Source: Desulfobacterales bacterium (GTDB taxonomy: Bacteria; Desulfobacterota; Desulfobacteria; Desulfobacterales; JAHDSC01). Taken from it: 64,000 bases of DNA. Under the pieces are notes generated by a model. The model was given only the letters and a program-made list of their open reading frames with translations. It searched no databases and had not been told where the DNA came from. Shown one piece after another: positions 5,864 to 22,808 of this stretch (positions within the stretch are counted from its first letter, which is position 1; each line of letters begins with the position of its first letter). The stretch covers positions 12,487 to 76,486 of the forward strand of contig JAFGES010000095.1 in the NCBI GenBank assembly GCA_016931455.1, written 5' to 3'. The translations under genes were made by a program, and so were the position numbers.

Positions 5864-6946
5864 TCAATCCGGATGAATTTCGTTTACGATTTTTTCAATC
5901 AATTCATAAACTTCTATTTTGATGTGGTCCACGTCCTCATCTTGAAGATTCAAAAATTCCATTGTTTTTTTGTCTATTTGATTCTGTAAGGTATCATCGA
6001 TGTTTGCTCCTATACCAGTCATTATGGCGATTGAATTAGCCATGTTCAGGATATATGACAATTCATTTTCTTGTGATAAGCATGGCTCATGGTGATATTT
6101 TATAGCAATTGATAATGATTCAGGTATATTCCATTTCATGCAGAACTCGGATGCGATCTCTGCGTGATCAAACCCCAATATTTTTTTTTCAGCACTTTGC
6201 AACGTCTTTTGATGATTTTTAATCTGTTCATGAAACACTTCCTTATTTTCGAACAGATACGGGTCGAGAATGATTTTGCCTGCATCATGAAAGAGTCCAG
6301 CTGAAAAGGCGTCGTTTGCTAATTTAGGATTTCTTCTGCCGGCAATGATTTTGGAACCATAGGCCACAGCTAATGAATGACGCCAAAGATCTCCTGCTCC
6401 CATGCCGTATCCCTTCAATTTTTTGCCTAGGAAGTTTGAAGTACCAGCCAAAGTGATAATTTCTCCTAATTTTTCATGCCCAAGCACAACAGCGGCATGT
6501 TGAATGGAAGAGACCATTCCGCTCAGACCATAATATGCTGAATTCGCAAGTTTCAAAACCCTGGCGGCAATGGCCTGATCGGTTTCAAGGACGCTTCCTA
6601 TCTCTTTAAAGCTTGAATGGGATCGTGCCATGACCTCCCTAGCTTTAGATAAAATTTGAGGCATAGGAGGTAAATCGGTTAAGGTTTTTAAGATTTCCTT
6701 TTTTAAACTATCTCCGTGTATTTTTTTTTCGTTGGATGGTAAAGATGGGTTGGTTTCCTCATCCTTCATTTTTTCAGAAGTATGTGAATGGGAAGAGGTA
6801 TCATCCTCAGGTTCTGACTTTGATCGGAGATCAAGACAGATCCGGCCTTTGCAGGCTGGGCAAGGAAAGGAAATTTTTTTTCCTTTTGGGATTCGTTCGT
6901 CCGGTATGTTATACAATTTACTGCAATTTTGGCATTCTACGCGCAT
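5864..6946 (-). CDS. HDOD-domain protein with N-terminal zinc ribbon
   Basis: N-terminus has CxxC...CPxC (MRVECQNCSKLY...FPCPACKG), then a Ser/Glu-rich linker. HDOD-like region follows (AARVLKLANSAYYGLSGMVSSIQHAAVVLG ... FHDAGK). Last gene on the che-operon strand. Confidence 0.75.
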   Translation of the reverse strand: MRVECQNCSKLYNIPDERIPKGKKISFPCPACKGRICLDLRSKSEPEDDTSSHSHTSEKMKDEETNPSLPSNEKKIHGDSLKKEILKTLTDLPPMPQILSKAREVMARSHSSFKEIGSVLETDQAIAARVLKLANSAYYGLSGMVSSIQHAAVVLGHEKLGEIITLAGTSNFLGKKLKGYGMGAGDLWRHSLAVAYGSKIIAGRRNPKLANDAFSAGLFHDAGKIILDPYLFENKEVFHEQIKNHQKTLQSAEKKILGFDHAEIASEFCMKWNIPESLSIAIKYHHEPCLSQENELSYILNMANSIAIMTGIGANIDDTLQNQIDKKTMEFLNLQDEDVDHIKIEVYELIEKIVNEIHPD

Positions 6947-7082: not shown

Positions 7083-9260
7083 CTAATAATTTTTTTGTAG
7101 AATTTCAAATAAACCGGCTATGTCCAGTATCAGACCGACCTTGCCATCGCCCAAGATAGCACCGCCGGCCATACCTTTTATGTTTTTAAGGGCTTCCCCT
7201 AAGCTTTTGATCACGACTTCTTCCTGTCCTAGCAATTCATCCAAAAGCAGACCTCTTTTTTCATTTTTGTTCTCTACCACGACTACAAGACCGTCCCAAG
7301 GGTTTTTAGAGTCTCCCTGCACACCAAACATGCGATCCAGACGAATCAGCGGCGTCAAATCTCCCCTGACCATCACCATTTCGCCTTTACCTTTTATGGT
7401 ATAATAATCGTGCTTCCGAGGCTTAAATGATTCAAGAATTGCCATTGTCGGTAAAATATATCTTTGCGTTCCGACTCTTACGATCATCCCTTCAATAATG
7501 GCAAGGGTCAGTGGCAAACTGATGACAACCGTTGAACCCTGCCCAGGTGCTGAACGAATATCCAGGCGCCCGCGCAACTTTTCAATTCCCTTTTTGACAA
7601 CATCCATTCCTACACCCCGGCCGGAGACTGCAGTAATTTTTGCCGCCGTTGAAAATCCGGGATGAAAAATCAGATCATAAATTTCGGCTTCTGATAATTT
7701 TGCATCTTTGCTAATCAAATGGATTGCAATCGCCTTCTCAAGAATTCTCTCTTTATTTAGCCCCCTGCCATCATCTTCGATTTCTATGACGATATTACCG
7801 CCTTTATGATAAGCACGCAGCCGGATAATACCTTTTGCCTCTTTTTCCGCCTTTAACCGTTCTTGGGGAAGTTCAATTCCGTGATCAACGGCATTTCGAA
7901 TCATATGAACCAACGGTTCATAAAGTTCCTCGACCACATTTCTGTCGATTTCCGTATCTTCCCCAACCATTTCTAGTCCCACTTCTTTACCGGAGTTTCG
8001 GGCAAGATCCCGTACTAGCCGAACCATCTTATGAAAAGTGCTCTTGATGGGAACCATCCGCATAGACATGGCGATCTTCTGAAGCCCTGATACAATCTGA
8101 GTCAGTTGATTTAAATTCTGGTAAAGCTGTTGATCATTTAATGACTTAATCAAATTATTTTGCCTTAGCATTGCTTGAGATATGACCAGTTCACCGGTCA
8201 GGTCCACCAGGTTGTCCAGTTTGGCGGTATCCACTTTGACCTGGCGCTCCAAGAGACGCTGGTTTCCTTTTTGATCCCGCAATGCGGATATAACTTCCTT
8301 GGGCTTTGCTTTCTTTTTTTCAATCAGGATTTCACCGATTTTTTTATCGGGCATCGTTTCCTGTTTTTTTAACACTTGATTAAGCTCTTCTTCCTTGAGC
8401 GTACCTTTTCCAACCAGAATTTCACCCAACCGTTTTCCTGCTTTGTCGGCATGCCGAATCGTCGCTTCTATTTTGTTAATCAGCGGCTCAATGTCGCTGT
8501 TTTTCTCTAGTTCTTTCTCACCGGATGCCAATGCTTTCTCGACCCCGTGAATAAGCTGTTTAAGCGTATCGACCGATTCAAGAACGATATCAATGACGGC
8601 ATTCGTGATTCTGCATTCGCCTTGGCGAGCACTGTCAAGTAGATTCTCAGTGCTATGAGCCAGCCGGTTGATGTGGTTCAAATTTAGGAAACCCGATACC
8701 CCTTTGATGGTATGAAAGGGACGGAAAATGGCATTAATGGTTTCTTGGTCATCAGGATCCTGTTCAAGATTGATCAGGTGAATTTCAATTTGTTCTAGAT
8801 TTTCAAGTGCTTCGATGACAAAATCCTTCAGGATTTGAATGTCTTCCTGTGTCCATTCATCTTTTGCCGGCTGTTGGATAGCCCTTTCCGTTTGGTTTGG
8901 TGCGGATTTTCCTGCTTCTTCATTCTGAAAAAACCCCAGCCGTTTTAAAATGTGAGTCGTATCGAAGCTGTACGTTTCATTATTATTTATAGCACGCCAA
9001 ATAGTTTGTAGTGTAGTAATGCCGTCTTCAAGCGGACCCATATCACCTGTTTCCGCTAAAATAATTTTTTCCAGATATACCTTTTGGCTGTGGGTAATAT
9101 TTAAAAATGTTTGGTCTTCCAAGCGTTCGGCTTTTTCTTCAAGGGCTGAGAATGCGTTGAGCATTTCCCCCATGGCCGGAATATCTCCCGGTTCCAATGT
9201 AACCACCTGCAAGGCAAGCTTTTCCAGGTCTACTTTAATTTGTTCCATCATACCTTCCAC
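7083..9260 (-). CDS. cheA: Chemotaxis histidine kinase CheA (module 1)
   Basis: Hpt motif (FHTIKGVSGF), P3 dimerisation region, HATPase (NAVDHGIE, DDGRGL, GRGVGMDVV) and a C-terminal CheW-like domain. Carries a roughly 150-aa N-terminal extension before the Hpt. Confidence 0.95.
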   Translation of the reverse strand: MEGMMEQIKVDLEKLALQVVTLEPGDIPAMGEMLNAFSALEEKAERLEDQTFLNITHSQKVYLEKIILAETGDMGPLEDGITTLQTIWRAINNNETYSFDTTHILKRLGFFQNEEAGKSAPNQTERAIQQPAKDEWTQEDIQILKDFVIEALENLEQIEIHLINLEQDPDDQETINAIFRPFHTIKGVSGFLNLNHINRLAHSTENLLDSARQGECRITNAVIDIVLESVDTLKQLIHGVEKALASGEKELEKNSDIEPLINKIEATIRHADKAGKRLGEILVGKGTLKEEELNQVLKKQETMPDKKIGEILIEKKKAKPKEVISALRDQKGNQRLLERQVKVDTAKLDNLVDLTGELVISQAMLRQNNLIKSLNDQQLYQNLNQLTQIVSGLQKIAMSMRMVPIKSTFHKMVRLVRDLARNSGKEVGLEMVGEDTEIDRNVVEELYEPLVHMIRNAVDHGIELPQERLKAEKEAKGIIRLRAYHKGGNIVIEIEDDGRGLNKERILEKAIAIHLISKDAKLSEAEIYDLIFHPGFSTAAKITAVSGRGVGMDVVKKGIEKLRGRLDIRSAPGQGSTVVISLPLTLAIIEGMIVRVGTQRYILPTMAILESFKPRKHDYYTIKGKGEMVMVRGDLTPLIRLDRMFGVQGDSKNPWDGLVVVVENKNEKRGLLLDELLGQEEVVIKSLGEALKNIKGMAGGAILGDGKVGLILDIAGLFEILQKNY

Positions 9261-9281: not shown

Positions 9282-9665
9282 TTAATGCAAAATTTTTTCT
9301 AATTTTTCAGATATTGCCTCAGCAGTGAATGGTTTTACCACGTAATTTGATACGCCTGCCTGGACAGCTTCAATTACATTCTGTTTTTGAGCCTCAGCGG
9401 TAACCATCAGAAACGGAATACTCTTTAAATCGTTGTTACTGCGAACAGCTTTAAGCAATTCAATGCCGGGCATATTGGGCATATTCCAATCCGAAATGAT
9501 TAAATCGAATTTTTTCTTCTTAAGTTCACTCATCGCTGTTGTTCCGTCATCAGCCTCAATTATATTCGTAAAACCGATTTGTTTTAAGATATTCTTCATT
9601 ATTCGGCGCATTGTTGCAAAATCGTCTACAACCAAGATATTAATGGACAGATCCATATGTGCCAT
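9282..9665 (-). CDS. cheY: Chemotaxis response regulator CheY
   Basis: Single receiver domain with VVDDF, ISDWNMP, MVTAE and VVKPF (the acidic pocket, T and K residues are all present). Confidence 0.9.
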   Translation of the reverse strand: MAHMDLSINILVVDDFATMRRIMKNILKQIGFTNIIEADDGTTAMSELKKKKFDLIISDWNMPNMPGIELLKAVRSNNDLKSIPFLMVTAEAQKQNVIEAVQAGVSNYVVKPFTAEAISEKLEKILH

Positions 9666-9701: not shown

Positions 9702-10163
9702 TTAATTTTCTAAACAAACTTCAATTGTAAAATTGCCCTCATCAATAGAAAAAGGAATTGCAATCTGAGGCCCTTTTGCAATATGAGCAATGCCATGATT
9801 TTTGCCGGTTATTACAGAGGGAATGGCTGCTTCAAATATCTTGCCGGATTCTGCCAGTTCTCTTCTGGCTTGACCAGATATCATATTGGTTAATTCACCA
9901 ACGGCATCAGCCACCTCACCATTTAACTCTTTCATTTCCTCCCCAAACATATTGGAAACAATTTTTAAAATACTGTTTTCATCAAAGGTGACGGAAATAG
10001 TCCCGTTTGTTTGACCCGTAATCCCAATAACACCTGTCACATCTCCTTTTGCAATATTGTCCTTTTTTAAATAAGGCGTACCTGCTTTGGATTTTACAAA
10101 AGCCATGGTTTCGAGAACATTCACAGTTGCATTGATAAAAGGATTAATCAGCATTGCATCCAT
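9702..10163 (-). CDS. cheX: CheX/CheC-family CheY-P phosphatase
   Basis: CheC/CheX-like sequence with GELTNMISGQA. The ATG at 10163 is preceded by AGGAGG 8 nt upstream, so I prefer it to the ORF-track start at 10223. Confidence 0.7.
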   Translation of the reverse strand: MDAMLINPFINATVNVLETMAFVKSKAGTPYLKKDNIAKGDVTGVIGITGQTNGTISVTFDENSILKIVSNMFGEEMKELNGEVADAVGELTNMISGQARRELAESGKIFEAAIPSVITGKNHGIAHIAKGPQIAIPFSIDEGNFTIEVCLEN

Positions 10164-10351
10164 TGATGTATTCCTCCTTTGGCGATAAGCAATATCTGCG
10201 TATCGATCGGCTTTTTTTGCCAATTGTGTTTAATTGATGTTTTACTTAAAATACTCAAATAATCCATGAAAAGTTTTATTGGCTTACATTAATAGATAAT
10301 ATCGGCCATAGGAAGTCGATTCCTAAGATTATAGTTGTAGAAAATTTGTCT

Positions 10352-10843
10352 TTATGCAGCTTCTTCGACAATTGCGATTTCTTGAGTGTTTAACACCCGA
10401 TCGATATCAAGTAGGATTTTAATACCTTCTTCCGTCTTGCCGATGCCTAATATATATTCGGTATTTAATTGGATTCCAAATGTGGGGGTCTCCTCGATAT
10501 CTTCAGCCTTGATGTTTAAGACTTCTGAAACCGAATCGACCACCAGCCCCATCATGATGGTACCTTCTTGACCGGCCACTTCAACCACAATGACACAGTT
10601 ACGCTCTGTATAATCAGTGGTTGCCATTTCAAATTTCAATCTAAGATCAATAACCGGTATGACTTTTCCGCGAAGGTTAATTACGCCTTTTACAAATTCG
10701 GGTACCTGCGGGACAGGCGTAATCGGCATCATACCAATAATTTCTTTTACTCTGAGGATGGCAATCCCATATTCCTCAGCTGCCAATGAAAAAGTAAGAT
10801 ATTTACCAGCCTTGTTTTTCACATTTTTTTCTAATTCAACCAC
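10352..10843 (-). CDS. cheW: Chemotaxis coupling protein CheW
   Basis: 163-aa CheW domain (YLTFSLAAEEYGIAILRVKEI ... GVINLRGKVIPVIDLR). Confidence 0.9.
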   Translation of the reverse strand: MVELEKNVKNKAGKYLTFSLAAEEYGIAILRVKEIIGMMPITPVPQVPEFVKGVINLRGKVIPVIDLRLKFEMATTDYTERNCVIVVEVAGQEGTIMMGLVVDSVSEVLNIKAEDIEETPTFGIQLNTEYILGIGKTEEGIKILLDIDRVLNTQEIAIVEEAA

Positions 10844-10902: not shown

Positions 10903-11985
10903 TTATTTCGAACCCTCACGTAAAACCGTACCCGCAATAGCTTCAAGCGGTAGAATCCGTTTAACCGCTTCTCGTTTAATTGCCTCATGAGGCATTCCAA
11001 ATACGACACAAGATGCTTCATCTTGAGCAATGGTAAAAGCACCGGCTTCCTTCATTTCAAGTAAGCCACGGGCACCATCATCTCCCATGCCAGTCAGGAT
11101 GACTCCCACTGCATTGGAACCTGCATAGCGGGCAGCCGACCGAAAAAGGACATCAACCGAGGGTCGATGCCTGCAAACCAAAGGGCCTTCTTTGATTTCG
11201 ACATAATATCTTGCTCCGGATCGTTTCAAAAGTATATGCCGATTTCCCGGCCCGATAAGTGCTTGACCGCGCAGAACCCTATCCTCATTCGCTGCTTCTT
11301 TGACCTCAATCTGACATAGATCGTTAATTCGTTTTGCAAAGGCCTTTGTAAAATTTTCCGGCATATGCTGAACAATTACAATGCCCGGACTGTCATGGGG
11401 AAGAGCTTCCAAAAGCAGACGTAACGCTTCCGTTCCACCTGTAGATGCGCCGACAACGACAATTCGATCCGTTGTACGTGCCATCGCTTTTCCAGTAGGC
11501 GGGGCTATAACTGCATCAGCCGTTAGTTTTTTAGTTATTTTGTTCCGTTTGTAAGAAATCGGTTTAACACGCGCCTTTGCCGCGGCTTTAACAGCATCAC
11601 AGATACGTATCTGTGATTCTTGAAAGAAATTTTTAACATCGACTCGGGGTTTTTGAATGATATCGACCGCACCATACTCCAGAGCTTTGAGGGTGGTTTC
11701 ACATCCCTTTTCGGTAAGGCTTGAACACATCACCACGGGTATCGGATGTTGAGACATGATTCGTTTCAGAAAAGTAATGCCGTCCATACGTGGCATTTCT
11801 ACATCAAGAGTGATAACATCAGGTATCTCATTTTTAATTTTATGGGCTGCGATAAACGGATCTGTTGCTGTCGCCATTACTTCGACTTCGGGATCTGATG
11901 ATAGAATTTGTTCTAGAGTCTGACGAACAACCGCTGAATCATCTACGATCAAGACTTTGATTTTTCTCTTCATTTTATAATTCAT
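10903..11985 (-). CDS. cheB: Protein-glutamate methylesterase CheB (receiver + esterase)
   Basis: N-terminal receiver (VLIVDDS, LDVEMP). C-terminal methylesterase ([18 protein letters not shown]). Confidence 0.95.
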
Positions 11986-12861
11986 TTATATGGGTTTTCG
12001 GTATACGGAAATTGCTACGGTTACAAACTGATCATTAATTCCATTTAGTGTTTCTGAATGGCCGATGAATAAATATCCCCCTGGAATTAATTGATTATAA
12101 AATTTTTTAAACAATTTAATTTGTGTCTGTCGGTCAAAATAAATTATGACGTTTCGACAAAAAATAATATCCATTATCGTTTTTATTCCGAAAACGTTGC
12201 CTTCAATAAGGTTAAGGCGTTCAAATCTCACACGATTTCGTAGTTCCGGAACTATACGAAAGAGCCCCTTTTGAGAATTTTTGCCTCGCATCAGAAATTT
12301 GTGTTTAAAATTCGGGGGGATCGGCAGGACAATTTTTTCTGGATAAATCCCACGTTCGGCGGTTTCTAATACGCGCGTGGAGATATCCGTCGCCAATATA
12401 GAAAAGTCTCCAATCCGTTGCTTTGAAAAAAACTCTTTTAAGACCATGGCAATTGTGTAAGGTTCTTCTCCACTGGAGCAACCTGCGCTCCAAACATTTA
12501 GCCGTTTAAGAAGATTCATTGGTTTGGATTGGAAAAGGTCGGGCAAGCAATTTTTTAATAGAAAATCTAAATGCTTTGGTTCACGAAAAAAATCTGTTTT
12601 ATTTGTTGTGACCACATTGATCATGTGAACGAGTTCTTTGGATCGGCCTTGCCGACTGGTGACGTAATCGTAATATTCACTAAATGAAGTTATATCCTGA
12701 AGGCGTAACCGTTTCGTCAACCGAGAAGTCAACATCGTTTTTTTTGTCGATGAGATTTTGACACCGCATTCTTCATAAATCAAATTGCTAAAACGCCGGA
12801 AATCATGTTCCGACATACTTGGATTTTTTTGTTTTGATAAGTTGTAACTACTATTTTGCAT
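11986..12861 (-). CDS. cheR: Chemotaxis methyltransferase CheR (full length)
   Basis: N-terminal helical domain plus SAM-binding domain (VWSAGCSSGEEPYTIAM, IFCRNVIIYFD). The stop abuts the cheB start with 0 nt spacing. Confidence 0.9.
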   Translation of the reverse strand: MQNSSYNLSKQKNPSMSEHDFRRFSNLIYEECGVKISSTKKTMLTSRLTKRLRLQDITSFSEYYDYVTSRQGRSKELVHMINVVTTNKTDFFREPKHLDFLLKNCLPDLFQSKPMNLLKRLNVWSAGCSSGEEPYTIAMVLKEFFSKQRIGDFSILATDISTRVLETAERGIYPEKIVLPIPPNFKHKFLMRGKNSQKGLFRIVPELRNRVRFERLNLIEGNVFGIKTIMDIIFCRNVIIYFDRQTQIKLFKKFYNQLIPGGYLFIGHSETLNGINDQFVTVAISVYRKPI

Positions 12862-13004: not shown

Positions 13005-13535
13005 CTATGCCGCATTTTCAGAAAGCATTATTTCTGAGTCGGTTTCCGAATTATTTTCGATTATCTGCGCGGCGGTGTATTCATTCGCCGTAAGGATACG
13101 ATCGATATCGAGAATAATTAGAAATTTTTCATCTTGTTTGCCCATACCCTTAATAAATTCATTTTTGAGTTTGGTTCCTATCCGCGGTGCTGGTGCGATT
13201 TGAGCCGGGTCAAGATCGATGACTTCTTTCACCGAATCGGCCAGAGCCCCCATCTGCATGATTTCGCCATCCATTTCGATTTCAACGATTACAATACAGG
13301 TATCAACTGTTTTCTGAATAGCACTCATGCCGAGTTTAAGCCGTAAGTCAATTACCGGTACGACATTGCCGCGCAGGTTGATAACGCCCCTGAGATACTC
13401 CGGCATGCGGGGTACTTTCGTGATGGTGGTATAGTCGAGTACCTCTCGCACCTTTGCAATTTCAAGTGCAAAATCCTCTTGACCCAGAGTAAATGTAAAA
13501 TATTGAGTTGCTTTGGTTATTTCGCCTGAACTCAT
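13005..13535 (-). CDS. cheW: Chemotaxis coupling protein CheW (second copy)
   Basis: 176-aa CheW domain (YFTFTLGQEDFALEIAKVREV ... GVINLRGNVVPVIDLR). Confidence 0.85.
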   Translation of the reverse strand: MSSGEITKATQYFTFTLGQEDFALEIAKVREVLDYTTITKVPRMPEYLRGVINLRGNVVPVIDLRLKLGMSAIQKTVDTCIVIVEIEMDGEIMQMGALADSVKEVIDLDPAQIAPAPRIGTKLKNEFIKGMGKQDEKFLIILDIDRILTANEYTAAQIIENNSETDSEIMLSENAA

Positions 13536-13645
13536 TTGATATCCTCCTGATGTTTTCAGTTTGCTTCAGATTGCATTTGCATCGGATCATATTGACAAAA
13601 AGCCGAAGGCTATTATGATGTTAGACAAAAAATTTTTTTTATTAT

Positions 13646-16462
13646 CTAGAAGCGTTCAAATTCATTATCATCATGGTCACTTAAATCCAAAGCAACTCCT
13701 TGTTCCGATGCTGCTGCTGCTGATGTGTAGGTTTTCTTGAACGTGTGTTTCGGCGCTGGTTTATTAGGTGCTGCGCCCGAATGCCTGACTTTTTTCAAAC
13801 CACCGTTAATCGCTTGAAAGGCTCGTTTTGACTGACGATGAATTGATTTTTGGTGTGATTGGTTATCAACTTTGAAAAATTCGGCTGTATTTTTAAGTTG
13901 CTCGGCTTGGCCGGAGAGTTCTTCGCTGGTGGAAGCCATTTCTTCGGTCGCGCTGGCATTTTGCTGAATTACCTGATCTAATTGTTCGATGGCCTTTGTA
14001 ATCTGCTGAATTCCATCGGCTTGTTCGGCGCTGGATGCATTGATTTCCATTACCAGTTCAGCGTTTTTCTGGATAGCCGGTACCATATCTGATATCAGCA
14101 TGCCCGCTTTTTCGGCAATTTCAACACTAGTGCTGGACAAATTACCAATCTCCTGTGCAGCAGTTTGGCTGCGTTCAGCCAATTTGCGAACCTCAGATGC
14201 AACGACCGCAAAACCTTTGCCGTGTTCGCCGGCACGAGCCGCTTCAATGGCTGCGTTAAGTGCCAGCATGTTTGTCTGGCGAGCAATTTCTTCGATGATG
14301 CCGATCTTAGCGGCAATACTCTTCATGGCCTGAACGGTTTCGGTTACGGATGCCCCGCCTTTTTTTGCATCTTCAGCTGCTTTTTCAGCAATTGATGCGG
14401 TTTCTTTCGCATTATCGGCGTTTTGGGTAACGGTGCTGTTCATTTCCTCCATCGAACTGGAGACCTCTTCGACACTTGCAGATTGTTCGGTGGCTCCTTG
14501 TGACATTTGCTGGGCGGCGGAGCTGATTTGCTGGCTGCCGGAGGCAACCTGCTCGGCTGCGGTTTGTACGTTTACTGCAATTGAGGTAAGTTCTTTAACC
14601 ATCTTCTGTAATGCTTCCATGAGCATATCTTGCTCGGACCTCTTTTCGACTTTGACCATGAGGTTTCCATCGGCAATTTCCTGGGAAAGTGCGACTACGT
14701 CGTTTGTGTTTTCCATCATCTGGATCAATGACGGCATAATTTTATCGTTTTCCGAGCGTCGACCGATTTTTTTATATTCCGCTAAATCCTTCAGGTCACC
14801 TACTGCGATGTTGTTCACCGTATCGGTTATATGCAGAAGAACATCTCTGACATGATTGACAGCCTCTCCCACTTCGGCAAAGAGTCCTTCGTATTGGCCC
14901 TTTATGCTTTTTGTATGGTCGTTTACCGCCATTCGTTGAAGAACGGCATTGGCTTCGACCAGGCCTCCAAGTCCGTCAATACATTGATTGATATTGTTTT
15001 TGATTTCGTTAAAGTCACCTTTGTACTCATCTGTAATTTTATCAGGAATATCGCCTTTACTGATGCGGTCTACGTACTCCGCTGCTACATTAAGCGGTCC
15101 GATCACCGCATCCAGTGTGTCGTTGACGCCTTTGACGATTTTGGCATAGTCACCAGCGAAACTGGTCGCATCGCCGCGGATATCGAGTTTGCCTTCAACG
15201 GCAGCCTGAGTTAAAGTATTGATCTCATCTCCCAAGCCCTTAATATTTTCCATCATTTCGATGATAGCCGGAATAATTTTATCGTTTTCGGAACGTCTGC
15301 CGATTTCTTTATAATTTGCTAAATCACTTAAGTCACCGACGGCAATATCATTTACTGTATCCGTGATGTGCAGCAGTCTCTGCCTGACATCGTTTGTCGC
15401 TTTTCCAACTTCGGCAAAGATCCCTTCATATTGTCCTTCGACCTTCATTGTATGGTCATTAACGGCCATTCGCTGGAGAACGGCATTAGCTTCGACCAAA
15501 CCTCCAAGCCCGTCAATACACTGATTGATATTATTTTTGATTTCGTTAAAGTCACCTTTGTACTCATCTATTATTTTTTCGGGAATATCCCCCTTGCTGA
15601 TCCGATCCACATATTCGGCCGCTACATTCAGGGGGCCGATTACCGCATCCAGTGTTTCATTAACACCTTGTACAACTTTACCGAAATCACCACTAAACTT
15701 GGAAGCATCTGCTCTTATATCCAACTTGCCTTCAAGCGCTTCCTGGGTTAACCCGTTGATTTCATCCCCCAATCCCTTGATTGTTTCCATCATTTCAATA
15801 TAAGCGGATACGATTTTATCGTTATCGGACAATCGGGCCTTGCCACCGCCGATTTGCCTGTAAGCTTCTAAATCACTGAGATCCCCTTGCGCAATTTTGT
15901 TAGCCGTAATTGTCACTTGCAGCAGCACACGCCGGACAAGGTTTATGGCCTTTCCAATTTCACCATAGATCCCCGTATATTTGCCTTGCATTTTCATTGT
16001 GTGATCGTTAAAGGCCATGCGTTGCAAAACGGAATTGGCTTCCACAAGTCCTTGGAGGGAGTCAATACAGTCATTAATACTGTTTTCAGTATCATTCAGA
16101 GCGCCTTTATATTCAGCTGTAATTTTTTTTGGGATATCGCCTTGGGTAATACACTCAATAAATTCTTTAGCAGTTTCCAAAGGGTTGGTTACGGTATCAA
16201 TTATTTGATTGATACCTTCAAGTATTTCTCTTTCCGTACCACTTGTGTCGCGGCAATCTGCACGGGCATCCAACTGCCCGGCCATAATGGCTTCAAGCAA
16301 TCTATTAAATTCTTTGAGCATACTTTTACTCCTCATTTTTCCATTAGAATTATTTAATTTTTTTTCATTCGCTATGGTTTGAATTTCTTCTTCTACAGGC
16401 GGCCCTTTTGCAGATGAAGGAAAAGTTTCTTCTTTAATGTTTTTAGCTTTTTTGCCTGCCAT
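13646..16462 (-). CDS. Soluble methyl-accepting chemotaxis protein with three tandem sensor-like repeats
   Basis: Canonical MCP tip ([35 protein letters not shown]). I could find no hydrophobic transmembrane segment. Three 179-183-aa repeats span aa 58-598. C-terminus reads EFERF. Confidence 0.9.
14669..16291 (-). repeat. Intragenic tandem repeat, 3 units of about 537 nt
   Basis: Protein repeats lie at aa 58-240, 241-419 and 420-598. Units 2 and 3 are near-identical over long stretches ([61 protein letters not shown]). The 127-aa antisense shadow ORFs at 14831 and 15368 are offset by exactly 537 nt. Confidence 0.9.
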
Positions 16463-16577
16463 TACTTACCCTCCATTTTTCAATTTGTTGGAATAAATAT
16501 GATTTCCGTTATAAATTCATTTGCTTATCGTTTCTGACGATAATTGATAAGAGTTTTAAATGATTCAAGATAGATAT

Positions 16578-17177
16578 TTATTTTTTTAGTCCCTTTCTTG
16601 CATTGTTTAATGATGTGTAGAGTGTTTTTTTTAAATTGCCTTGTAAGGGCTTTCCATGCCCGCAATAGATTGATTGAATATTTTTGCAGCAAAGCTTTTC
16701 CATCGCACGAACAAAACCGGTTTCATAAGTGCCGCCGGGCGTCTTGATAAAAATAGGGGTGTCACCTGAGAACAGGACACCTTCTTTATCACAGTAAAGA
16801 CATATAGAATCGATGCTGTGACCTGGTGTATGGTGGACTTCAAATATTCTGTCGCCGATTTTTAAAGTTTCTTTATCTTTCAATCGGCAGTCAACCCCCT
16901 CTAGTGAAGCAGAAAAAGCATAAATGACAGGATTAAAAGCTTTTTTGATTTGAGGTAAAAGACCGGTGTGGTCATAATGACTATGAGTTAGAATAACCTG
17001 ATCTATTTTATGTTTGCCGACACCTGTTGGAATATTATTAATTTTTTCAATCACCGATGGATCCCGGCCGACGTCTATTAGGGTGTTCACATCTCCAAAG
17101 GCATTCCATGTGCCGGTAATCAGATAAACATTGGAAGTATAGATCTTACTGTCTGTGGTAAGATTTAATATTTTCAA
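16578..17177 (-). CDS. Metallo-beta-lactamase-fold hydrolase (199 aa)
   Basis: HxHxDH motif (LTHSHYDHTG) with downstream His and Asp ligands (HHTPGHS, CGH). Lies 12 nt downstream of the short cheR-like gene. Confidence 0.8.
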   Translation of the reverse strand: MKILNLTTDSKIYTSNVYLITGTWNAFGDVNTLIDVGRDPSVIEKINNIPTGVGKHKIDQVILTHSHYDHTGLLPQIKKAFNPVIYAFSASLEGVDCRLKDKETLKIGDRIFEVHHTPGHSIDSICLYCDKEGVLFSGDTPIFIKTPGGTYETGFVRAMEKLCCKNIQSIYCGHGKPLQGNLKKTLYTSLNNARKGLKK

Positions 17178-17189
17178 ACAACGATTCCT

Positions 17190-17795
17190 TTATTCAAGTT
17201 TTTGGAAAACCTGTGCATTCGAAACGATGGGGTCGAACATTGTCTGAACCTGGCCCGGCAATTTTTGAGTCTGTTCCATTACAAAAAAACCACCGTCTAC
17301 AAGTGAATCATGGAACATTTTTATAACCTTGATCCGTTGTTCCAGTTGAAAGTGTAGAAGTACGTTTTTACAAATAATCAGGTCAAAATTTTTTCTCACA
17401 GGTCTGAGCGTCAATAGATCGTGTTTCTGAAATGTGATACACTTGCGGATTTCTGTAACCACTCTAAAATGATCGGGTTTGTCGGTGGGCTCAAAGTATT
17501 TGGTGAAAATATCTTTTGGAATCCTTGCAACTTGATTTTTGGGATATAAACCGTTTTTTATAATTTCTCCGAATAGGTTGCTACCGTCAATATCCGTGCT
17601 ATAAATTTTAACGTTTCTAAAAATCATTTTGCCCATATTTTCCCGTAAAATCATAGCAATCGAATAAGGTTCCGGTCCCATGGCACATCCCGCATCCCAA
17701 ATGTTGATGTACCGACGAGCTCTCAAAGATGGAATAATATGGTCACGAATCATATCCAAGGTTTGCATGTCTCTGAAAAAATAGGTAAAAGCCAT
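17190..17795 (-). CDS. CheR-type SAM-dependent methyltransferase, catalytic domain only
   Basis: FFRD...IWDAGCAMGPEPYSIAM and ICKNVLLHF match the CheR SAM-binding domain. The roughly 80-aa N-terminal helical domain present in the CheR at 11986-12861 is absent. Confidence 0.75.
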   Translation of the reverse strand: MAFTYFFRDMQTLDMIRDHIIPSLRARRYINIWDAGCAMGPEPYSIAMILRENMGKMIFRNVKIYSTDIDGSNLFGEIIKNGLYPKNQVARIPKDIFTKYFEPTDKPDHFRVVTEIRKCITFQKHDLLTLRPVRKNFDLIICKNVLLHFQLEQRIKVIKMFHDSLVDGGFFVMEQTQKLPGQVQTMFDPIVSNAQVFQKLE

Positions 17796-17816
17796 CTATA
17801 TGTTTCTATTTTCCAC

Positions 17817-19967
17817 TTAATTTATTTTAGAAGTAAGTGCTCTTGCTTCTTCCTGTTCAGCACATCGGATAACTTTAATTGCATCAAGAATAAGCGCTAT
17901 ACCGCCATCGCCAAGAATGGTCGCACCGGAGATCCCTTCGGCGTCAGCGTATATTCTTCCAAGGGACTTGATAACGGTTTGGTGATCACCCATTATTTCA
18001 TCAACAACAATGCCGAATCGCTGATTTTCAAGTCTAACAATGGCAATATGTTCTCGACCCGGTCTATCGCCGAGTATATTAAATATCTCTCGTAAGCGAA
18101 CATATGGAATCCATTCACCCCTTACATCTATCATATATCGGTTGTGAGCCTTAGTAAGATCGTTTTGTGAAAGTTCGACACATTCTTCCACCATGGAAAG
18201 AGGCAAAACGAATCGGTTTGTATTTACTTTCACTAGAAGGCCGTCGATTATGGCAAGTGTCAGCGGCAAGTTGATGGTAATGGTCGTGCCGCAGCCTTGT
18301 TTACTAGAAATTTCAATCGTTCCACGCATTGCATCAATTTCACGTTTTACTACATCCATTCCAACTCCCCGGCCTGAAATACTAGTAACATTTTGGGCGG
18401 TTGAAAAACCGGGTTCAAAGATCAGGTTAAGAATTTCGTTTTCATCTAAATCCGAATCGGATTGAATCAATCCTTTTTCAATTGCTTTGGCTTTGATGGT
18501 TTCAAGTTTGATGCCGGCACCATCATCAGAAACGGTAATAACGACGCTGGCCCCAACATGTGCAGCGCTTAAGCAAATCTTTCCTCGGCGTGATTTACCG
18601 ATGGCCTTACGGTTTTCCGGCGCTTCTATTCCATGATCAATACTGTTGCGTATTAAGTGAACCAGTGGATCATTGAGGCTTTCTATGATAGTTTTATCCA
18701 GCTCGGTATCTCCGCCCTCCGTCACCAAATCAATCTCTTTTTGCAGCTCAATAGACAGGTCACGTACAAGTCGCTTAAATGTGCTGAAAGTCGTTCCAAT
18801 GGGCAGCATCCGAATATTGAGAACACAATCTCGCAGTTCACTTGTTAGACGCTCAATTTCTTCAGCCGTGTTATTTAATTCGGCAGCATTTACTTCTGAA
18901 GTAATCTGAGTAAGCCTTGCCTGAGTAATGACTAATTCTCCAACAAGATTGATAAGTCGATCAAGTCGTTCAGCAGGTACCCGTACACCGGCGACTTTGG
19001 GAGTCTTTTTTTGTCTCTTGAGGAATTGTTGCTCGGTTAGTGCGGATTTTATTTTTTCTTTCGATACGCTTCCGGACTCGATCAATAAATTACCGATTGG
19101 TTTTTGGCCGGCAAGCACCTCGTTTAACTCAAGCAGAGTGACGTCTCCCCGATCAACCAGTATTTCACCTATCCGTTTGTGTGCTACATTCAAATTGGTT
19201 TTAAAATCCGCAATTTCTTGTATTGAAATGTCACTATCCTCTTGAATAAAAATAAAAACGTCTTTAATCGCATTAATATCTTTTTCTGTTGTGAGTATGA
19301 TATCCCAGAAAAGGTAGCAATTTTCAGGAATTAAGTTTAAAAGTACCGGAATTTCTTCCGTTTGGGATATTATTGCACATTCGCCAAGACTGCGCAGTTC
19401 ATCTAAAATTAAGATAGGATCCATTCCGGATGCAAAAATACCGGCTTCAGGATTAAATCTGATTCGATAGGTATGATCACTTTTTTCTTTATGATCCAAC
19501 TGGATATATTTGTTCTCTTCTATTGAAGGAATCGAAACCGGATTAGCCTGAGTGGGTAAAAGAGCTTTCAAATCAGAGATGATTTTTTGAGAATTCAAAT
19601 TATTTTCCGAACTTTTTAAGGTTATTTTTTTCCCTTCTACGGATTGAAGCATGGTGCTGATCTCATCCCGTGCTCTGAGAATTAAATCAATGAGTTCTTG
19701 ACTAATGGGTATGGTTCCGTCTCTGACTTTATCCAGCACAGTTTCGACGTGATGGGTAAAAGCGGCGATCTCATCAAATCCAAACATAGCACCTGAACCT
19801 TTGATGGTATGTATAGCACGAAATAGACGGTTAATCGTTTCAGCATCATCAGGATTCTTCTCAAGATCCAATACGGTTTCTTCAATATCTTGGAGAAGCT
19901 CTTCTGCCTCCTGGCGGTAAGCATTACTATGATCATTTGATTCGTTCATCATTGCATATTCCTTCAA
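17817..19967 (-). CDS. cheA: Chemotaxis-type histidine kinase CheA (module 2)
   Basis: Hpt (AIHTIKGSGAMFG), P3 region, HATPase (NSIDHGIE, DDGAGI, GRGVGMDVV) and a C-terminal CheW-like domain. Confidence 0.9.
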   Translation of the reverse strand: MKEYAMMNESNDHSNAYRQEAEELLQDIEETVLDLEKNPDDAETINRLFRAIHTIKGSGAMFGFDEIAAFTHHVETVLDKVRDGTIPISQELIDLILRARDEISTMLQSVEGKKITLKSSENNLNSQKIISDLKALLPTQANPVSIPSIEENKYIQLDHKEKSDHTYRIRFNPEAGIFASGMDPILILDELRSLGECAIISQTEEIPVLLNLIPENCYLFWDIILTTEKDINAIKDVFIFIQEDSDISIQEIADFKTNLNVAHKRIGEILVDRGDVTLLELNEVLAGQKPIGNLLIESGSVSKEKIKSALTEQQFLKRQKKTPKVAGVRVPAERLDRLINLVGELVITQARLTQITSEVNAAELNNTAEEIERLTSELRDCVLNIRMLPIGTTFSTFKRLVRDLSIELQKEIDLVTEGGDTELDKTIIESLNDPLVHLIRNSIDHGIEAPENRKAIGKSRRGKICLSAAHVGASVVITVSDDGAGIKLETIKAKAIEKGLIQSDSDLDENEILNLIFEPGFSTAQNVTSISGRGVGMDVVKREIDAMRGTIEISSKQGCGTTITINLPLTLAIIDGLLVKVNTNRFVLPLSMVEECVELSQNDLTKAHNRYMIDVRGEWIPYVRLREIFNILGDRPGREHIAIVRLENQRFGIVVDEIMGDHQTVIKSLGRIYADAEGISGATILGDGGIALILDAIKVIRCAEQEEARALTSKIN

Positions 19968-19977
19968 TTCGCCCGGT

Positions 19978-20343
19978 TCAACGAAGCACTTTTTTAATTA
20001 CTGCCAACAGTTGTTCAGGATTAAAAGGTTTGACGATCCATCCTGTGGCACCGGCAGCCTTACCTTCCGCCTTTTTTTCTTCTTGGGATTCGGTTGTCAG
20101 CATGATAATGGGCATGAATTTATATCGGGATTCAGCGCGAACCTTCTTAATTAATCCAATTCCATCTAAATTCGGCATATTAAGATCGGTTATCAACATA
20201 TTTACCTGATTAGCAGTGAGCTTATTTAAAGCATCTTGCCCATCCACCGATTCTAAAACATCGTAACCCGCCTGCTTCAGGGTGAAGCTGACCATTTGCC
20301 TGACACTGGCCGAGTCATCGACTGTCAAGATTACTTTTGACAT
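19978..20343 (-). CDS. cheY: CheY-like single-domain response regulator (module 2)
   Basis: Receiver residues are present (TVDDS, ITDLNMP, LTTES, VKPF). Confidence 0.85.
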   Translation of the reverse strand: MSKVILTVDDSASVRQMVSFTLKQAGYDVLESVDGQDALNKLTANQVNMLITDLNMPNLDGIGLIKKVRAESRYKFMPIIMLTTESQEEKKAEGKAAGATGWIVKPFNPEQLLAVIKKVLR

Positions 20344-20354
20344 TTGGCGCCTCT

Positions 20355-20660
20355 TTAAACAAAGTTTAATGTATTTTCAGTATCTAGACCAATAAGGGAT
20401 GCAGCCTCATAAAAGCATTTGGAAACATTGGTGATTTTTAAAGTTTTACCTGTTTGCTTTGCTGTTTTTTGAGCTGAACAAATAAGCTGAATTCCGGCCG
20501 TATCCAAATCGTTTGTGTTGCTGAGATCAAGGACCAAATCATTATAATTTTCAAAACACATCAGCAACTCATGTCGAAGGGAGGCAACCTCATATATGGT
20601 TAAAGCACCTTCGATTTTTAGGAGTGCTTGTTCGTTTTTTTCCTCTAATGTGAAACCCAT
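20355..20660 (-). CDS. STAS-domain protein (anti-sigma-factor-antagonist fold)
   Basis: 101 aa with SpoIIAA/RsbV-like layout (LKIEGALTIYEVASLRHELL ... LVLDLSNTNDLDTAGIQLI ... LKITNVS). Confidence 0.75.
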   Translation of the reverse strand: MGFTLEEKNEQALLKIEGALTIYEVASLRHELLMCFENYNDLVLDLSNTNDLDTAGIQLICSAQKTAKQTGKTLKITNVSKCFYEAASLIGLDTENTLNFV

Positions 20661-20822
20661 CAGTTCCCTCTTTTCCTATCTTTAAAATGTTGATGACAAA
20701 CTTCTGAAAAATTTTCATCGGTCATGATTATAATTTGGGTTATAAATGTGTGAACACAAGGTTCGTCCCTATTGGAAATCGGAGAGCCTTCATTCTACAA
20801 TTCATAATGGATAGGGCGCTGT

Positions 20823-22808
20823 TCAGAAGAGTTCAACGTTGTCTCCTAGGTCATCATCTTCTTGAGCATTTTCAAAAAGGGTCTTTGATTGCACGCCCGA
20901 ATTTCTATCTAAAGTATTTTTTGCTTTGGAGGATGTATGGCAGCAGTTTGTCTCATCCGACACCATTGATTCGTTTGTTTCTTTAAGTATTCGATTGTGG
21001 ATGCTGCGCTCACTTTGCATCGTGTATCTATGCGATGCGAGATCGATTTCATTTTGAATTTTCAAATCTTTTTGGGCCGACCATGTCTCTAACAACTTTG
21101 CCATCCCGTTGATCTGATTAAGGCATTTTTTCAGCCGGTCATTTAACTCAGTAAAAAAACAAAGATCCGATCTGATATGTTCTATTGTTTTCTTCACGGT
21201 ATATGACTGTTGCAGGGTTGTTGTAGAATTCATTCGTAACTTTTTGTAAGCTGTGGAAATTTGATCAATCCCAATCTGAAGGGGCGTTTTGGATTTTTTA
21301 TCTTTCGACATCTGTGTTCTTTTTTCCCAAGACTGATTTTTTAAATTCCGGGCCAAAGCATTGATCGATTGGAGAATTTCCACTACTTGATTTACGAATA
21401 TCTCTGATTCATTTGAAATTTTTGTTACCTCTTGCGCAAGAACATCAAGTGTTTTGCCTTTATCATTTAAGTGTGCCGTCTTAACAATGGCATTTAGGGC
21501 TTTAAGGTGAAGATCTATACTGATTCCGCGAACTTGATTGACATATTGCGAAAGATGGGATGCGGTTTTGGATGTTTGTATCGCGGTTTGAATCATTTGA
21601 CAGCCAAGCTCGTTTCCTTGAATACTTAGTTGATCGAGATGTTCAAGGTTGGCTTTTAGCGTTTTAAGCGGTATTTCGATTTGACTTTTTGTGGTTCCCT
21701 GAAGGGTTTGTGCCGACATGTTGTTTGCCAGTAAGTCGGCTTCACTCTCAATATCTTCAAATGCGGAATTTATTTTTTGATGTGCCCCATTGATTTCAGC
21801 GATAACATGTTCTAATTGAGCTGCTTGGAGACTTAAAATTGAATATGCTCGACCTAAAACAGCATCCGGATCGAGGTTAGGGATTTTTTCATTACAAATA
21901 CTTTCCAAATCCCGGAGAGATGACACAATATGCTCGATCTTTTGTTTAGCGATGTCTTGGAATTGGATTGCCATCACGATTTCGCTGATCTGATTCGAAA
22001 TGTTTTGTGAATGGAAACCGGCCTTTTTGAATACTTCCACCAAGAGCTCCATAAGATGGGATATTTCACGGATTGAATTTTTTACAGTCTTATCGGCATC
22101 ATCCTTGAGTTTGCATAAATGGGCGATGCCTTCGGATACCTGATTGTGGGCCAGCATCTGATGAGATCGTTCCGAATAGGCGTGATCACGGATGTTTTGC
22201 GAAATTTCAAGAATATTTATGGTAATCTCTCTGATTTCTTGAATAAAAACTGTGAACATTTTTAAAGATTGCCTTGAGCGTGAGCTTTCAACCGCAATAT
22301 TAAAGCCGATGACATTAAGTGACATGGCTGTTTTTTCAATTATTTTGCATAGGTTATATAAATTTTTTAGATGTTCCGAACCATCCTTTATGCTTTGCAT
22401 GCAATTTGATAATCGGGATTCACAGCTCTGAAGTTCGGATAGAGCCTCTCCGACAATTCCTGAGATATTGTTCAAAATATTATCTTCAGATTTCCCACCC
22501 AGCATTTGTGCGGTTTCAACTGTTTGTCGGGCCAATTCATGACTATCGGAATAAACGGATTGGAGATCTTGACCGAGCTGCAAAAATTTTGGTTCGGCAT
22601 GTTTAATGCTTGCTTGAAGAAAGTCAATAAGCTCCGGCAGCTTAGATGATGTTTCATCAATTAAGGGGAATGCTTTATTGAAAGCAAAAAAAAATTTATT
22701 TTTTCTACGATTCCGGGGAAAAATATGGAATTTTTTTCTTATCTTTAACTTAGTATAATTTGTAAGCCAATTCACCATAATCTCCATCAAACGATTTGTA
22801 TTTTTCAA
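20823..22808 (-). CDS. Cytoplasmic MCP-like protein with two degenerate signalling-tip motifs
   Basis: aa 164-196 (LNVIGFNIAVESSRSRQSLKMFTVFIQEIREIT) and aa 435-465 (LKALNAIVKTAHLNDKGKTLDVLAQEVTKIS) both align position-by-position with the MCP tip [30 protein letters not shown]. An IQFQDIAKQKIEHI motif follows the first. No transmembrane segment. Start is uncertain (TTG at 22808 or ATG at 22787). Confidence 0.55.
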   Translation of the reverse strand: MKNTNRLMEIMVNWLTNYTKLKIRKKFHIFPRNRRKNKFFFAFNKAFPLIDETSSKLPELIDFLQASIKHAEPKFLQLGQDLQSVYSDSHELARQTVETAQMLGGKSEDNILNNISGIVGEALSELQSCESRLSNCMQSIKDGSEHLKNLYNLCKIIEKTAMSLNVIGFNIAVESSRSRQSLKMFTVFIQEIREITINILEISQNIRDHAYSERSHQMLAHNQVSEGIAHLCKLKDDADKTVKNSIREISHLMELLVEVFKKAGFHSQNISNQISEIVMAIQFQDIAKQKIEHIVSSLRDLESICNEKIPNLDPDAVLGRAYSILSLQAAQLEHVIAEINGAHQKINSAFEDIESEADLLANNMSAQTLQGTTKSQIEIPLKTLKANLEHLDQLSIQGNELGCQMIQTAIQTSKTASHLSQYVNQVRGISIDLHLKALNAIVKTAHLNDKGKTLDVLAQEVTKISNESEIFVNQVVEILQSINALARNLKNQSWEKRTQMSKDKKSKTPLQIGIDQISTAYKKLRMNSTTTLQQSYTVKKTIEHIRSDLCFFTELNDRLKKCLNQINGMAKLLETWSAQKDLKIQNEIDLASHRYTMQSERSIHNRILKETNESMVSDETNCCHTSSKAKNTLDRNSGVQSKTLFENAQEDDDLGDNVELF

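Follow-up and report, generated by a model that had tools for sequence, protein, structure and literature searches.

RESULTS

Domain architecture of the module 1 CheA

We analyzed a stretch of 64,000 nucleotides from a Desulfobacterales bacterium (GenBank assembly GCA_016931455.1, contig JAFGES010000095.1, positions 12,487 to 76,486), called the window below. It carries two che modules, each with a gene for a chemotaxis histidine kinase, CheA. The subject of this work is the CheA of module 1 and, within it, a pair of 24-residue motifs resembling those of MshEN, a domain that binds cyclic di-GMP (c-di-GMP) in ATPases of the MshE/PilB type. In the list of open reading frames (ORFs), this cheA is a 725-amino-acid (aa) ORF at 7083 to 9260 on the minus strand, with a GTG start at 9260. 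Its product matched exactly the NCBI protein MBN1931957.1 ("chemotaxis protein CheA," 722 aa), which comes from a 148-kb contig of a metagenome-assembled genome (MAG) of a Desulfobacterales bacterium and starts at the ATG at 9251. The start of cheA is ambiguous, being either the GTG at 9260, which gives the longest ORF and the numbering used here, or the deposited ATG three codons downstream.

Hpt, H-kinase_dim, HATPase_c, and CheW, the four Pfam domains expected of a CheA histidine kinase, all exceeded their cut-offs (4/4), and the protein was identified as such. Its parts follow one another in the order N-terminal helical domain, Hpt (P1), MshEN_N, P3, P4, and P5 (Table 1). The phospho-accepting histidine, His183, lies in the sequence HTIKG (aa 183 to 187), with its codon at 8712 to 8714. 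The P3 helix VKVDTAKLDNLVDLTGELV (aa 341 to 359) is C-terminal of the motif pair. The AlphaFold model of the full-length protein is in P0001 numbering, to which 3 must be added to obtain the ORF numbering. In this model, a four-helix domain (1 to 104) was followed by a disordered stretch (110 to 130), Hpt (135 to 243), a helix (255 to 269), a bundle formed by the motif pair (275 to 331), a short disordered segment (331 to 337), and then P3, P4, and P5. Only helices were predicted between Hpt and P3, beta strands were absent before residue 399, and the Pfam P2 domain was not matched. Therefore, P2 is absent and the MshEN_N module occupies its usual position, in agreement with the initial annotation, which had placed the motif pair where P2 normally sits. 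P2 is not universal among CheA proteins.

The N-terminal four-helix domain is conserved in this CheA family. It was matched by no Pfam family, and a search of the PDB sequences with the N-terminal 116 aa gave nothing. An hhalign comparison with Hpt gave only a weak signal that was not significant (E value of 0.057), the domain is without an HTIKG-type motif, and the phospho-His was not matched by any His.

Table 1. Features of the module 1 che locus, its CheA, and the second motif pair in the window (pLDDT, predicted local distance difference test)
Feature	Position	Strand	Residues (aa)	Basis and remarks
cheR	11986-12861	minus		ORF translation
cheB	10903-11985	minus		ORF translation
cheW	10352-10843	minus		Pfam CheW
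cheX	9702-10223	minus		Pfam CheX
cheY	9282-9665	minus		ORF translation
CheA N-terminal four-helix domain, then disordered linker	8940-9251	minus	~4-107	AlphaFold, pLDDT >90
CheA Hpt (P1)	8559-8837	minus	142-234	Pfam PF01627, E 7e-13
CheA MshEN_N bundle (motif pair and spacer)	8271-8432	minus	277-330	PDB sequence/profile searches, AlphaFold, Foldseek, conservation
CheA motif 1, RLGEILVGKGTLKEEELNQVLKKQ	8361-8432	minus	277-300	10/11 fixed consensus positions
CheA spacer, ETMPDK	8343-8360	minus	301-306	6 residues; near-invariant Pro
CheA motif 2, KIGEILIEKKKAKPKEVISALRDQ	8271-8342	minus	307-330	
CheA P3 dimerization domain (H-kinase_dim)	8061-8246	minus	339-400	Pfam PF02895
CheA P4 kinase (HATPase_c) and P5 (CheW-like)	7104-7919	minus	448-585 (P4), 590-719 (P5)	Pfam PF02518, PF01584
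Zn-ribbon and HDOD gene	5864-6946	minus		Pfam HDOD 4e-48, Zn_ribbon_4, HD
Second MshEN_N-like pair, RIGEILVDRGDVTLLELNEVLAGQ, K, PIGNLLIESGSVSKEKIKSALTEQ	19029-19175	minus		Motif scan; inside cheA 17817-19967

The tandem motif pair

The initial annotation had described the two motifs as an MshEN-type pair between Hpt and P3, the first fitting the consensus except for one Thr and the second being a degenerate copy behind a 6-residue spacer. This description was confirmed by the Pfam positions of Hpt and H-kinase_dim, by homology to PDB entries, by the predicted fold, and by conservation. The consensus of Wang et al. 2016, RLGxxLVxxG(I/F)(L/V)xxxxLxxxLxxQ, covers 24 residues with 11 fixed positions. 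The only mismatch of motif 1 to these positions is T287, at core position 11. Motif 2 retains positions 2, 3, 6, 7, 17, 21, and 24 (IG, LI, V, L, and Q) and has K instead of R at position 1; it agrees with the consensus at 5/11 positions when scored strictly and at 9/11 in relaxed residue classes. K316 stands in place of the turn Gly (position 10) and K317 in place of a core hydrophobic residue; AlphaFold nonetheless predicts a turn at K316. Given the amino-acid composition of the window, 1.5e-4 matches at 10/11 or better were expected by chance in its six frames, and one was seen. The second-best match in the window, at 9/11, lies within the other CheA.

MshEN_N has been defined with a five-residue spacer, and the spacer here has 6. 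Counted from alignments, the spacers of proven binders have 5 (MshE), 7 (PilF GSPII-C), and 9 (Aeromonas veronii CheA) residues. Given the spacers of 7 and 9 residues among these binders, a length of 6 does not speak against membership.

Wang et al. 2016 (PMC5013675) assign the ligand contacts of MshE to positions 1, 2, 3, 17, 21, and 24 in both motifs; the backbone amides of Gly3 bind guanine, and Gln24 forms hydrogen bonds to ribose and phosphate. In the module 1 CheA, all 12 of these positions hold residues that also occur in proven binders (R L G/L L Q in motif 1 and K I G/V L Q in motif 2). The basic residues K273, K276, R277, K306, and K307 flank the putative site and can be likened to the K5/R7/K8/R9/R38 patch of MshE. 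The substitutions G11L and G40I, both at Gly3 positions, abolish c-di-GMP binding by MshE, and any single mutation of a conserved hydrophobic residue costs more than 10-fold in binding, with changes of Arg or Gln costing at most 5-fold (PMC5013675). In PilF, both Arg are replaced in GSPII-B, by K and L, and this domain binds with a dissociation constant (KD) of 6 nM; GSPII-C, with P at position 1 of motif II, binds with a KD of ~0.46 µM (PMC11731258). These PilF domains thus tolerate K or P as the first motif residue.

Homology and predicted fold

A phmmer search with aa 258 to 341 against all PDB chains returned MshE, PilB, or PilF proteins as all of its best 14 matches, with E values of 2.4e-12 for PilF (best stretch, GSPII-C) and 5e-4 for Vibrio cholerae MshE. 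With a family profile built from 72 segments, the E values were 3.2e-22 for PilF, 2.4e-10 for Geobacter PilB, and 8.6e-7 for MshE. Both the sequence and the profile searches of the PDB matched MshE/PilB/PilF proteins only. The segment was modeled by AlphaFold as four helices with a core pLDDT of 85 to 88, and the top 14 Foldseek matches of this model in the PDB were all MshEN/GSPII domains. The predicted structure superimposed on c-di-GMP-bound MshE (5HTL) with a root mean square deviation (RMSD) of 0.9 Å over 57 residues and on PilF GSPII-B with c-di-GMP with an RMSD of 1.0 to 1.4 Å; the template modeling score, TM(query), of the model was ~0.6 to 5HTL, 8PDK, and 8PFA. The E values given by Foldseek were weak (0.2 to 0.7) because the domain is short. 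The comparison with V. cholerae MshE that had been suggested at the outset was thus borne out by the phmmer match, by the superposition on 5HTL, and by compatible contact positions. On the evidence of sequence and predicted fold, aa 277 to 330 are a true homologue of the MshEN_N four-helix c-di-GMP-binding bundle of MshE/PilB-type ATPases. This bundle is, by the same evidence, a stand-alone MshEN_N domain of ~54 residues, set in the P1-P3 tether of CheA at the P2 position.

Another outcome was obtained with the Pfam family PF05157 (MshEN/T2SSE_N), whose model has 90 positions. It was matched at an E value of ≤10 neither by the full-length CheA nor by fragments of 84 aa and 54 aa, and the same scans gave only weak DUF4388 and FumaraseC_C matches. 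The controls V. cholerae MshE (residues 3 to 66) and Thermus thermophilus PilF GSPII-C were likewise without PF05157 and gave the same weak DUF4388 and FumaraseC_C matches. Genuine bundles are missed by PF05157, and the absence of a match is therefore uninformative. In a T2SSE ATPase (P0292), PF05157 spans 321 to 405 and the CheA-derived profile spans 262 to 320; PF05157 therefore describes the C-terminal alpha/beta subdomain and not the N-terminal binding bundle. The initial annotation had set the lack of a T2SSE_N profile match as grounds for giving up its proposal. No such match was found, and the test proved invalid, as PF05157 misses the genuine bundles of MshE and PilF. We therefore dropped the missing match as evidence against the finding, because the positive controls had failed alike. 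An MshEN domain label was carried by none of the 240 CheA homologues. Since PF05157 misses the binding bundle, stand-alone MshEN_N modules go unannotated or are shown as weak DUF4388 matches.

Conservation of the module in the CheA family

Conservation was assessed in the best 120 homologues of the module 1 CheA, with identities of 58 to 70%. These proteins have 718 to 794 aa, save two that are truncated and one of 1034 aa, and, where labeled, they belong to Desulfobacterales, Desulfatiglandales, or Thermodesulfobacteriota. The MshEN_N module was kept in every one of them (120/120). Gly3 (G279 in motif 1 and G309 in motif 2) and Gln24 (Q300 and Q330) were invariant in both motifs, and Leu21 was found in 120/120 proteins in motif 1 (L297) and in 116/120 in motif 2 (L327). 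Positions 2 and 17 were hydrophobic in all proteins in both motifs, with V323 of motif 2 being V, I, or M in 120/120. Position 1 varied, being P in 96 and R in 22 proteins in motif 1 and K in 98 and R in 20 in motif 2. The turn position 10 was G in 119/120 proteins in motif 1 (G286); in motif 2 (K316), it was mostly K (85 proteins), with N (16) and G (9) less common. The spacer had 6 residues in 119/120 homologues. The mean conservation of the module was 0.705, compared with 0.45 to 0.49 for the flanking linkers and 0.77 to 0.80 for the catalytic domains.

In a scan of species-representative genomes, this CheA type was found at 47 loci in the Desulfobacterales/Thermodesulfobacteriota group, one of them labeled Pseudomonadota. 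The genomes that carry it include Desulfobotulus alkaliphilus ASO4-4 and a Desulforapulum autotrophicum MAG.

Occurrence of the module in a second CheA and in other proteins

The pair found in the second cheA of the window (Table 1) matched only PilF (E value of 5e-6) and MshE (0.022) in the PDB. A set of 120 homologues drawn from several phyla, among them the CheA of Geobacter sulfurreducens, keeps the pair, always with a spacer of a single residue. In the second CheA, the pair follows a region of ~150 residues at the usual P2 position, and a PDB sequence search with the Hpt-to-motif region gave no match. As this second CheA family, like the A. veronii CheA, appears to have P2 in addition to the module, the latter is more than a replacement for P2.

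The second che module (13005 to 22808, minus strand) also encodes unusual companions, namely a STAS-domain protein (20355 to 20660), a small protein with a metallo-beta-lactamase fold (16578 to 17177) between cheR and a 938-aa triple-HAMP methyl-accepting chemotaxis protein (MCP), and another MCP, of 661 aa, part of which weakly resembles CheZ (20823 to 22808).

When the bundle profile was run against a representative library, 11,130 proteins were matched at an E value of ≤1e-3, a number that gives the size of the superfamily and not a count of CheA proteins. The top 150 matches of this search were dominated by multi-repeat MshEN_N proteins, and the strongest (P0241 to P0259 and P0274) had 4 to 9 tandem MshEN_N repeats. 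Several multi-repeat proteins add Hpt, bacterial TSP3 repeats, and dockerin, and one hybrid kinase has the order Hpt, MshEN_N repeats, HisKA, HATPase_c, and REC. Hpt and MshEN_N occur together in these non-CheA proteins and therefore seem to co-occur outside CheA too.

Gene neighborhood and the HDOD protein

On the minus strand, the order of the genes in module 1 is cheR, cheB, cheW, cheX, cheY, cheA, and HDOD, with the HDOD gene 136 nucleotides downstream of cheA. A scan of the cheA-HDOD gap for terminators and promoters gave no signal above chance, and co-transcription of the two genes is plausible. An HDOD gene was found downstream of cheA in 43 of 50 fetched related loci (one genome is present twice, and in 5 of the 7 exceptions the contig stops early); the usual order is cheA-cheD-HDOD-cheY-cheB. 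In the window, no cheD separates cheA from HDOD. The HDOD protein of the window has its zinc ribbon at the N terminus. Its best PDB relative was the di-iron HDOD protein of G. sulfurreducens, 3HC1 (E value of 2.3e-22), with the His and Asp iron ligands aligned.

The initial annotation had counted the HDOD gene in favor of a c-di-GMP input. The neighborhood part of this argument stood, and HDOD is a real pathway component of this CheA family. The link of HDOD to c-di-GMP did not stand as well: SadB of Pseudomonas fluorescens was reported to bind c-di-GMP, but SadB of P. aeruginosa did not bind it in a Biacore assay (PMC12075610). Because the link is disputed, HDOD adds little to the case for c-di-GMP.

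In one of the related loci (L002, 14423 to 16271), a gene with a weak PilZ domain and a gene of the REC-HD-GYP type lie ~5 kb downstream of cheA-cheD-HDOD. Three other loci, two of which belong to Desulfobotulus genomes, have ORFs with a GGDEF motif nearby. Such neighbors do not recur systematically.

Comparison with known MshEN domains and c-di-GMP inputs

MshEN domains fused to CheA and to CheX were catalogued by Wang et al. 2016 (Nat Commun 7:12481, PMC5013675), and a fragment of A. veronii CheA (EKB11881 residues 261 to 390) binds c-di-GMP with a KD of 2.6 µM (Wang et al. 2016, Suppl. Table 6). Searches of the open-access literature for experiments on the regulation of CheA by c-di-GMP via MshEN led to Wang et al. 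2016 only, and no later paper was found that tests the action of the ligand on a CheA. The MshEN_N-CheA fusion was thus already published in 2016, and the CheA described here is a further, well-supported example of it. What is new is the P2-less CheA family of Desulfobacterales, the non-Gly turn in motif 2, the second CheA with the module, and the conserved HDOD neighbor.

The A. veronii CheA resembles the module 1 CheA in having tandem motifs in an MshEN_N domain between the phosphotransfer part and P3, with ~46% identity per motif by our own count, and in that one motif begins with a residue other than Arg (MLG and KLG in A. veronii). However, it keeps an annotated P2, whereas the module 1 CheA is without P2 and has an additional N-terminal four-helix domain. 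Its spacer has 9 residues and not 6, its motif 2 has kept the turn Gly where the module 1 CheA family has Lys or Asn, and it comes from Gammaproteobacteria and not from Desulfobacterales.

With V. cholerae MshE (5HTL), the module shares the four-helix bundle and the pair of 24-residue motifs, as well as the predicted close superposition and ligand contacts described above. The isolated V. cholerae MshEN_N (residues 1 to 62) binds c-di-GMP with a KD of 0.35 µM; cyclic GMP-AMP (cGAMP) is bound ~600-fold more weakly (KD of 3.3e-4 M), and binding of cyclic di-AMP (c-di-AMP) is undetectable (PMC5013675). MshE differs in adding the MshEN_C alpha/beta subdomain and the T2SSE ATPase, whereas the CheA has the N subdomain only, placed in the tether of a kinase, and in having a spacer that is one residue shorter. 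The nearest solved relative in sequence is GSPII-C of T. thermophilus PilF, whose best stretch gave E values of 3.9e-6 with the single sequence and 1e-11 with the profile. Its motif II aligns with motif 2 without gaps, and in both, position 14 is Pro and the first residue is other than Arg (P335 in GSPII-C). Its spacer is also longer than 5 residues, and position 11 of its motif I is also non-hydrophobic (K, compared with T287). In contrast, it lies within the triple GSPII array of a pilus ATPase and has kept the turn Gly of motif II. The N-terminal domain of Xanthomonas citri PilB in complex with PilZ (7LKM, 7LKN, and 7LKO) has the same fold and was among the Foldseek matches, but it offers a protein-binding surface there and has only 16% identity to the module.

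Indirect c-di-GMP inputs are provided by PilZ adaptors (MapZ-CheR1), PilZ chemoreceptors (Cbp1, PMC6454048), and the histidine kinases ShkA (PMC6969517) and SgmT (PMC3509222). In these systems, PilZ, pseudo-receiver, or degenerate GGDEF domains act on CheR, receptors, or classical kinases, whereas the module 1 CheA itself contains the receptor module, one of the MshEN_N type.

DISCUSSION

The initial annotation had read the motif pair as a c-di-GMP-type module, and this reading is supported by sequence homology, the predicted fold, the conservation of the ligand contacts, and the precedent of the A. veronii CheA. We propose, with moderate confidence in the chain as a whole, that a c-di-GMP-binding bundle in the P1-P3 tether of CheA clamps on its ligand and alters kinase output; the proposal draws on sequence, the structural model, and analogy. 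By inference from the family and by analogy with the A. veronii CheA, the bundle would bind one c-di-GMP between its two helical hairpins with an affinity in the micromolar range or better. The ligand would clamp the two hairpins together and make the P1-P3 tether stiffer or shorter. Because P1 has to travel on flexible tethers, first to P4 and later to the response regulator, ligand-dependent clamping would change its delivery. Judging from the architecture of CheA, such a tether may change the access of P1 to the ATP site of P4 and to CheY, and the cellular level of c-di-GMP would then set the output of the chemosensory pathway. The direction of the effect, with high c-di-GMP lowering kinase output, is a guess and the least secure step.

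Several observations weigh against this proposal. The relaxed pattern of Wang et al. fits neither motif, owing to T287 and to K316/K317; we regard this as a caveat, not a refutation. The MshEN_N consensus has a turn Gly at position 10 of both motifs, and motif 2 is without it (K316). We know of no tested binder without the turn Gly in motif 2. In MshE, this residue of motif 2 has been described as required for the turn between alpha3 and alpha4 (PMC5013675). GSPII-A of PilF is an MshEN-like bundle that does not bind, through small deviations and its context (PMC12002112), but the changes in GSPII-A strike Gly3 and Gln24 of motif II, and the sequence alignment shows both of these to be intact in the module 1 CheA. 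Finally, a crude pattern search found GGDEF, EAL, HD-GYP, and PilZ signatures to be absent from the window, and by equally crude patterns only 4 of the 50 related loci had a c-di-GMP gene nearby (three GGDEF and one HD-GYP).

Some of these points would also fit a homologue of MshEN_N that no longer senses a nucleotide and serves either as a folded spacer or as a docking surface in place of P2, with CheY, CheB, CheD, the HDOD protein, or a PilZ-type protein (cf. Xanthomonas PilB N-terminal domain-PilZ) as candidate partners. Without P2, CheY and CheB need another route to P1, and HDOD and CheD are near-universal neighbors of this CheA family. The PilZ complexes of the Xanthomonas PilB N-terminal domains (7LKM, 7LKN, and 7LKO) show that the fold can bind a protein, GSPII-A has the fold but does not bind c-di-GMP, and the missing turn Gly of motif 2 points the same way. 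However, invariance falls on the Gly and Gln that contact the ligand and on the hydrophobic triads, and not on a separate surface patch. The second CheA family has the module in addition to its ~150-residue region at the P2 position, and the A. veronii CheA has P2 in addition to a module that does bind c-di-GMP. We therefore consider a docking or spacer role possible but rather unlikely.

A bolder version, in which nucleotide sensing is retained, is that MshEN_N took over the position of P2 as a gate for P1, that c-di-GMP or a related dinucleotide would switch phosphotransfer, and that the HDOD protein would act as a di-metal partner that hydrolyzes or senses the nucleotide, the whole forming a self-contained unit in which second-messenger and chemotaxis signals are integrated. 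With two module-bearing CheA proteins in one locus, several pathways would then be tuned by one messenger. We offer this only as speculation and think it quite improbable.

The ligand might also be a different cyclic dinucleotide, such as 3'3'-cGAMP. Geobacter sulfurreducens uses cGAMP signaling, and the family of the second CheA module includes this species. The deviations of motif 2 could retune specificity, and the V. cholerae MshEN_N binds cGAMP detectably, if weakly (KD of 3.3e-4 M). Against this, both half-sites keep the residue classes that recognize guanine in MshE, the sequence gives no indication of adenine recognition, and MshE prefers c-di-GMP over cGAMP by ~600-fold and shows no detectable binding of c-di-AMP. 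Such a ligand seems to us very unlikely. That a helical, amphipathic linker resembles the MshEN motif by chance, a view for which the unmatched PF05157 and the weak Foldseek E values (0.2 to 0.7) might be cited, is refuted by the expectation of 1.5e-4 matches in the window, by PDB E values of 2e-12 and 3e-22 to MshEN proteins only, by the failure of PF05157 on genuine bundles, and by the strong conservation of the module relative to the flanking linkers.

We thus retain the proposal of a c-di-GMP-responsive clamp in the tether of CheA. The CheA family concerned is tractable and strongly conserved; it numbers at least 120 sequences and is present in 47 genomes at the species level, among them that of the cultured Desulfobotulus alkaliphilus. 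Its architecture is simplified by the lack of P2, and the variation in motif 2 is a natural test of the necessity of the turn glycine. The known routes by which c-di-GMP acts on chemotaxis are PilZ adaptors, PilZ-bearing receptors, and CheY-like proteins. If the proposal is true, no coupling of the messenger of the motile-sessile switch to the chemotaxis kinase would be more direct than a receptor module inside CheA, a possibility first raised in 2016 with a single binding constant for a CheA fragment.

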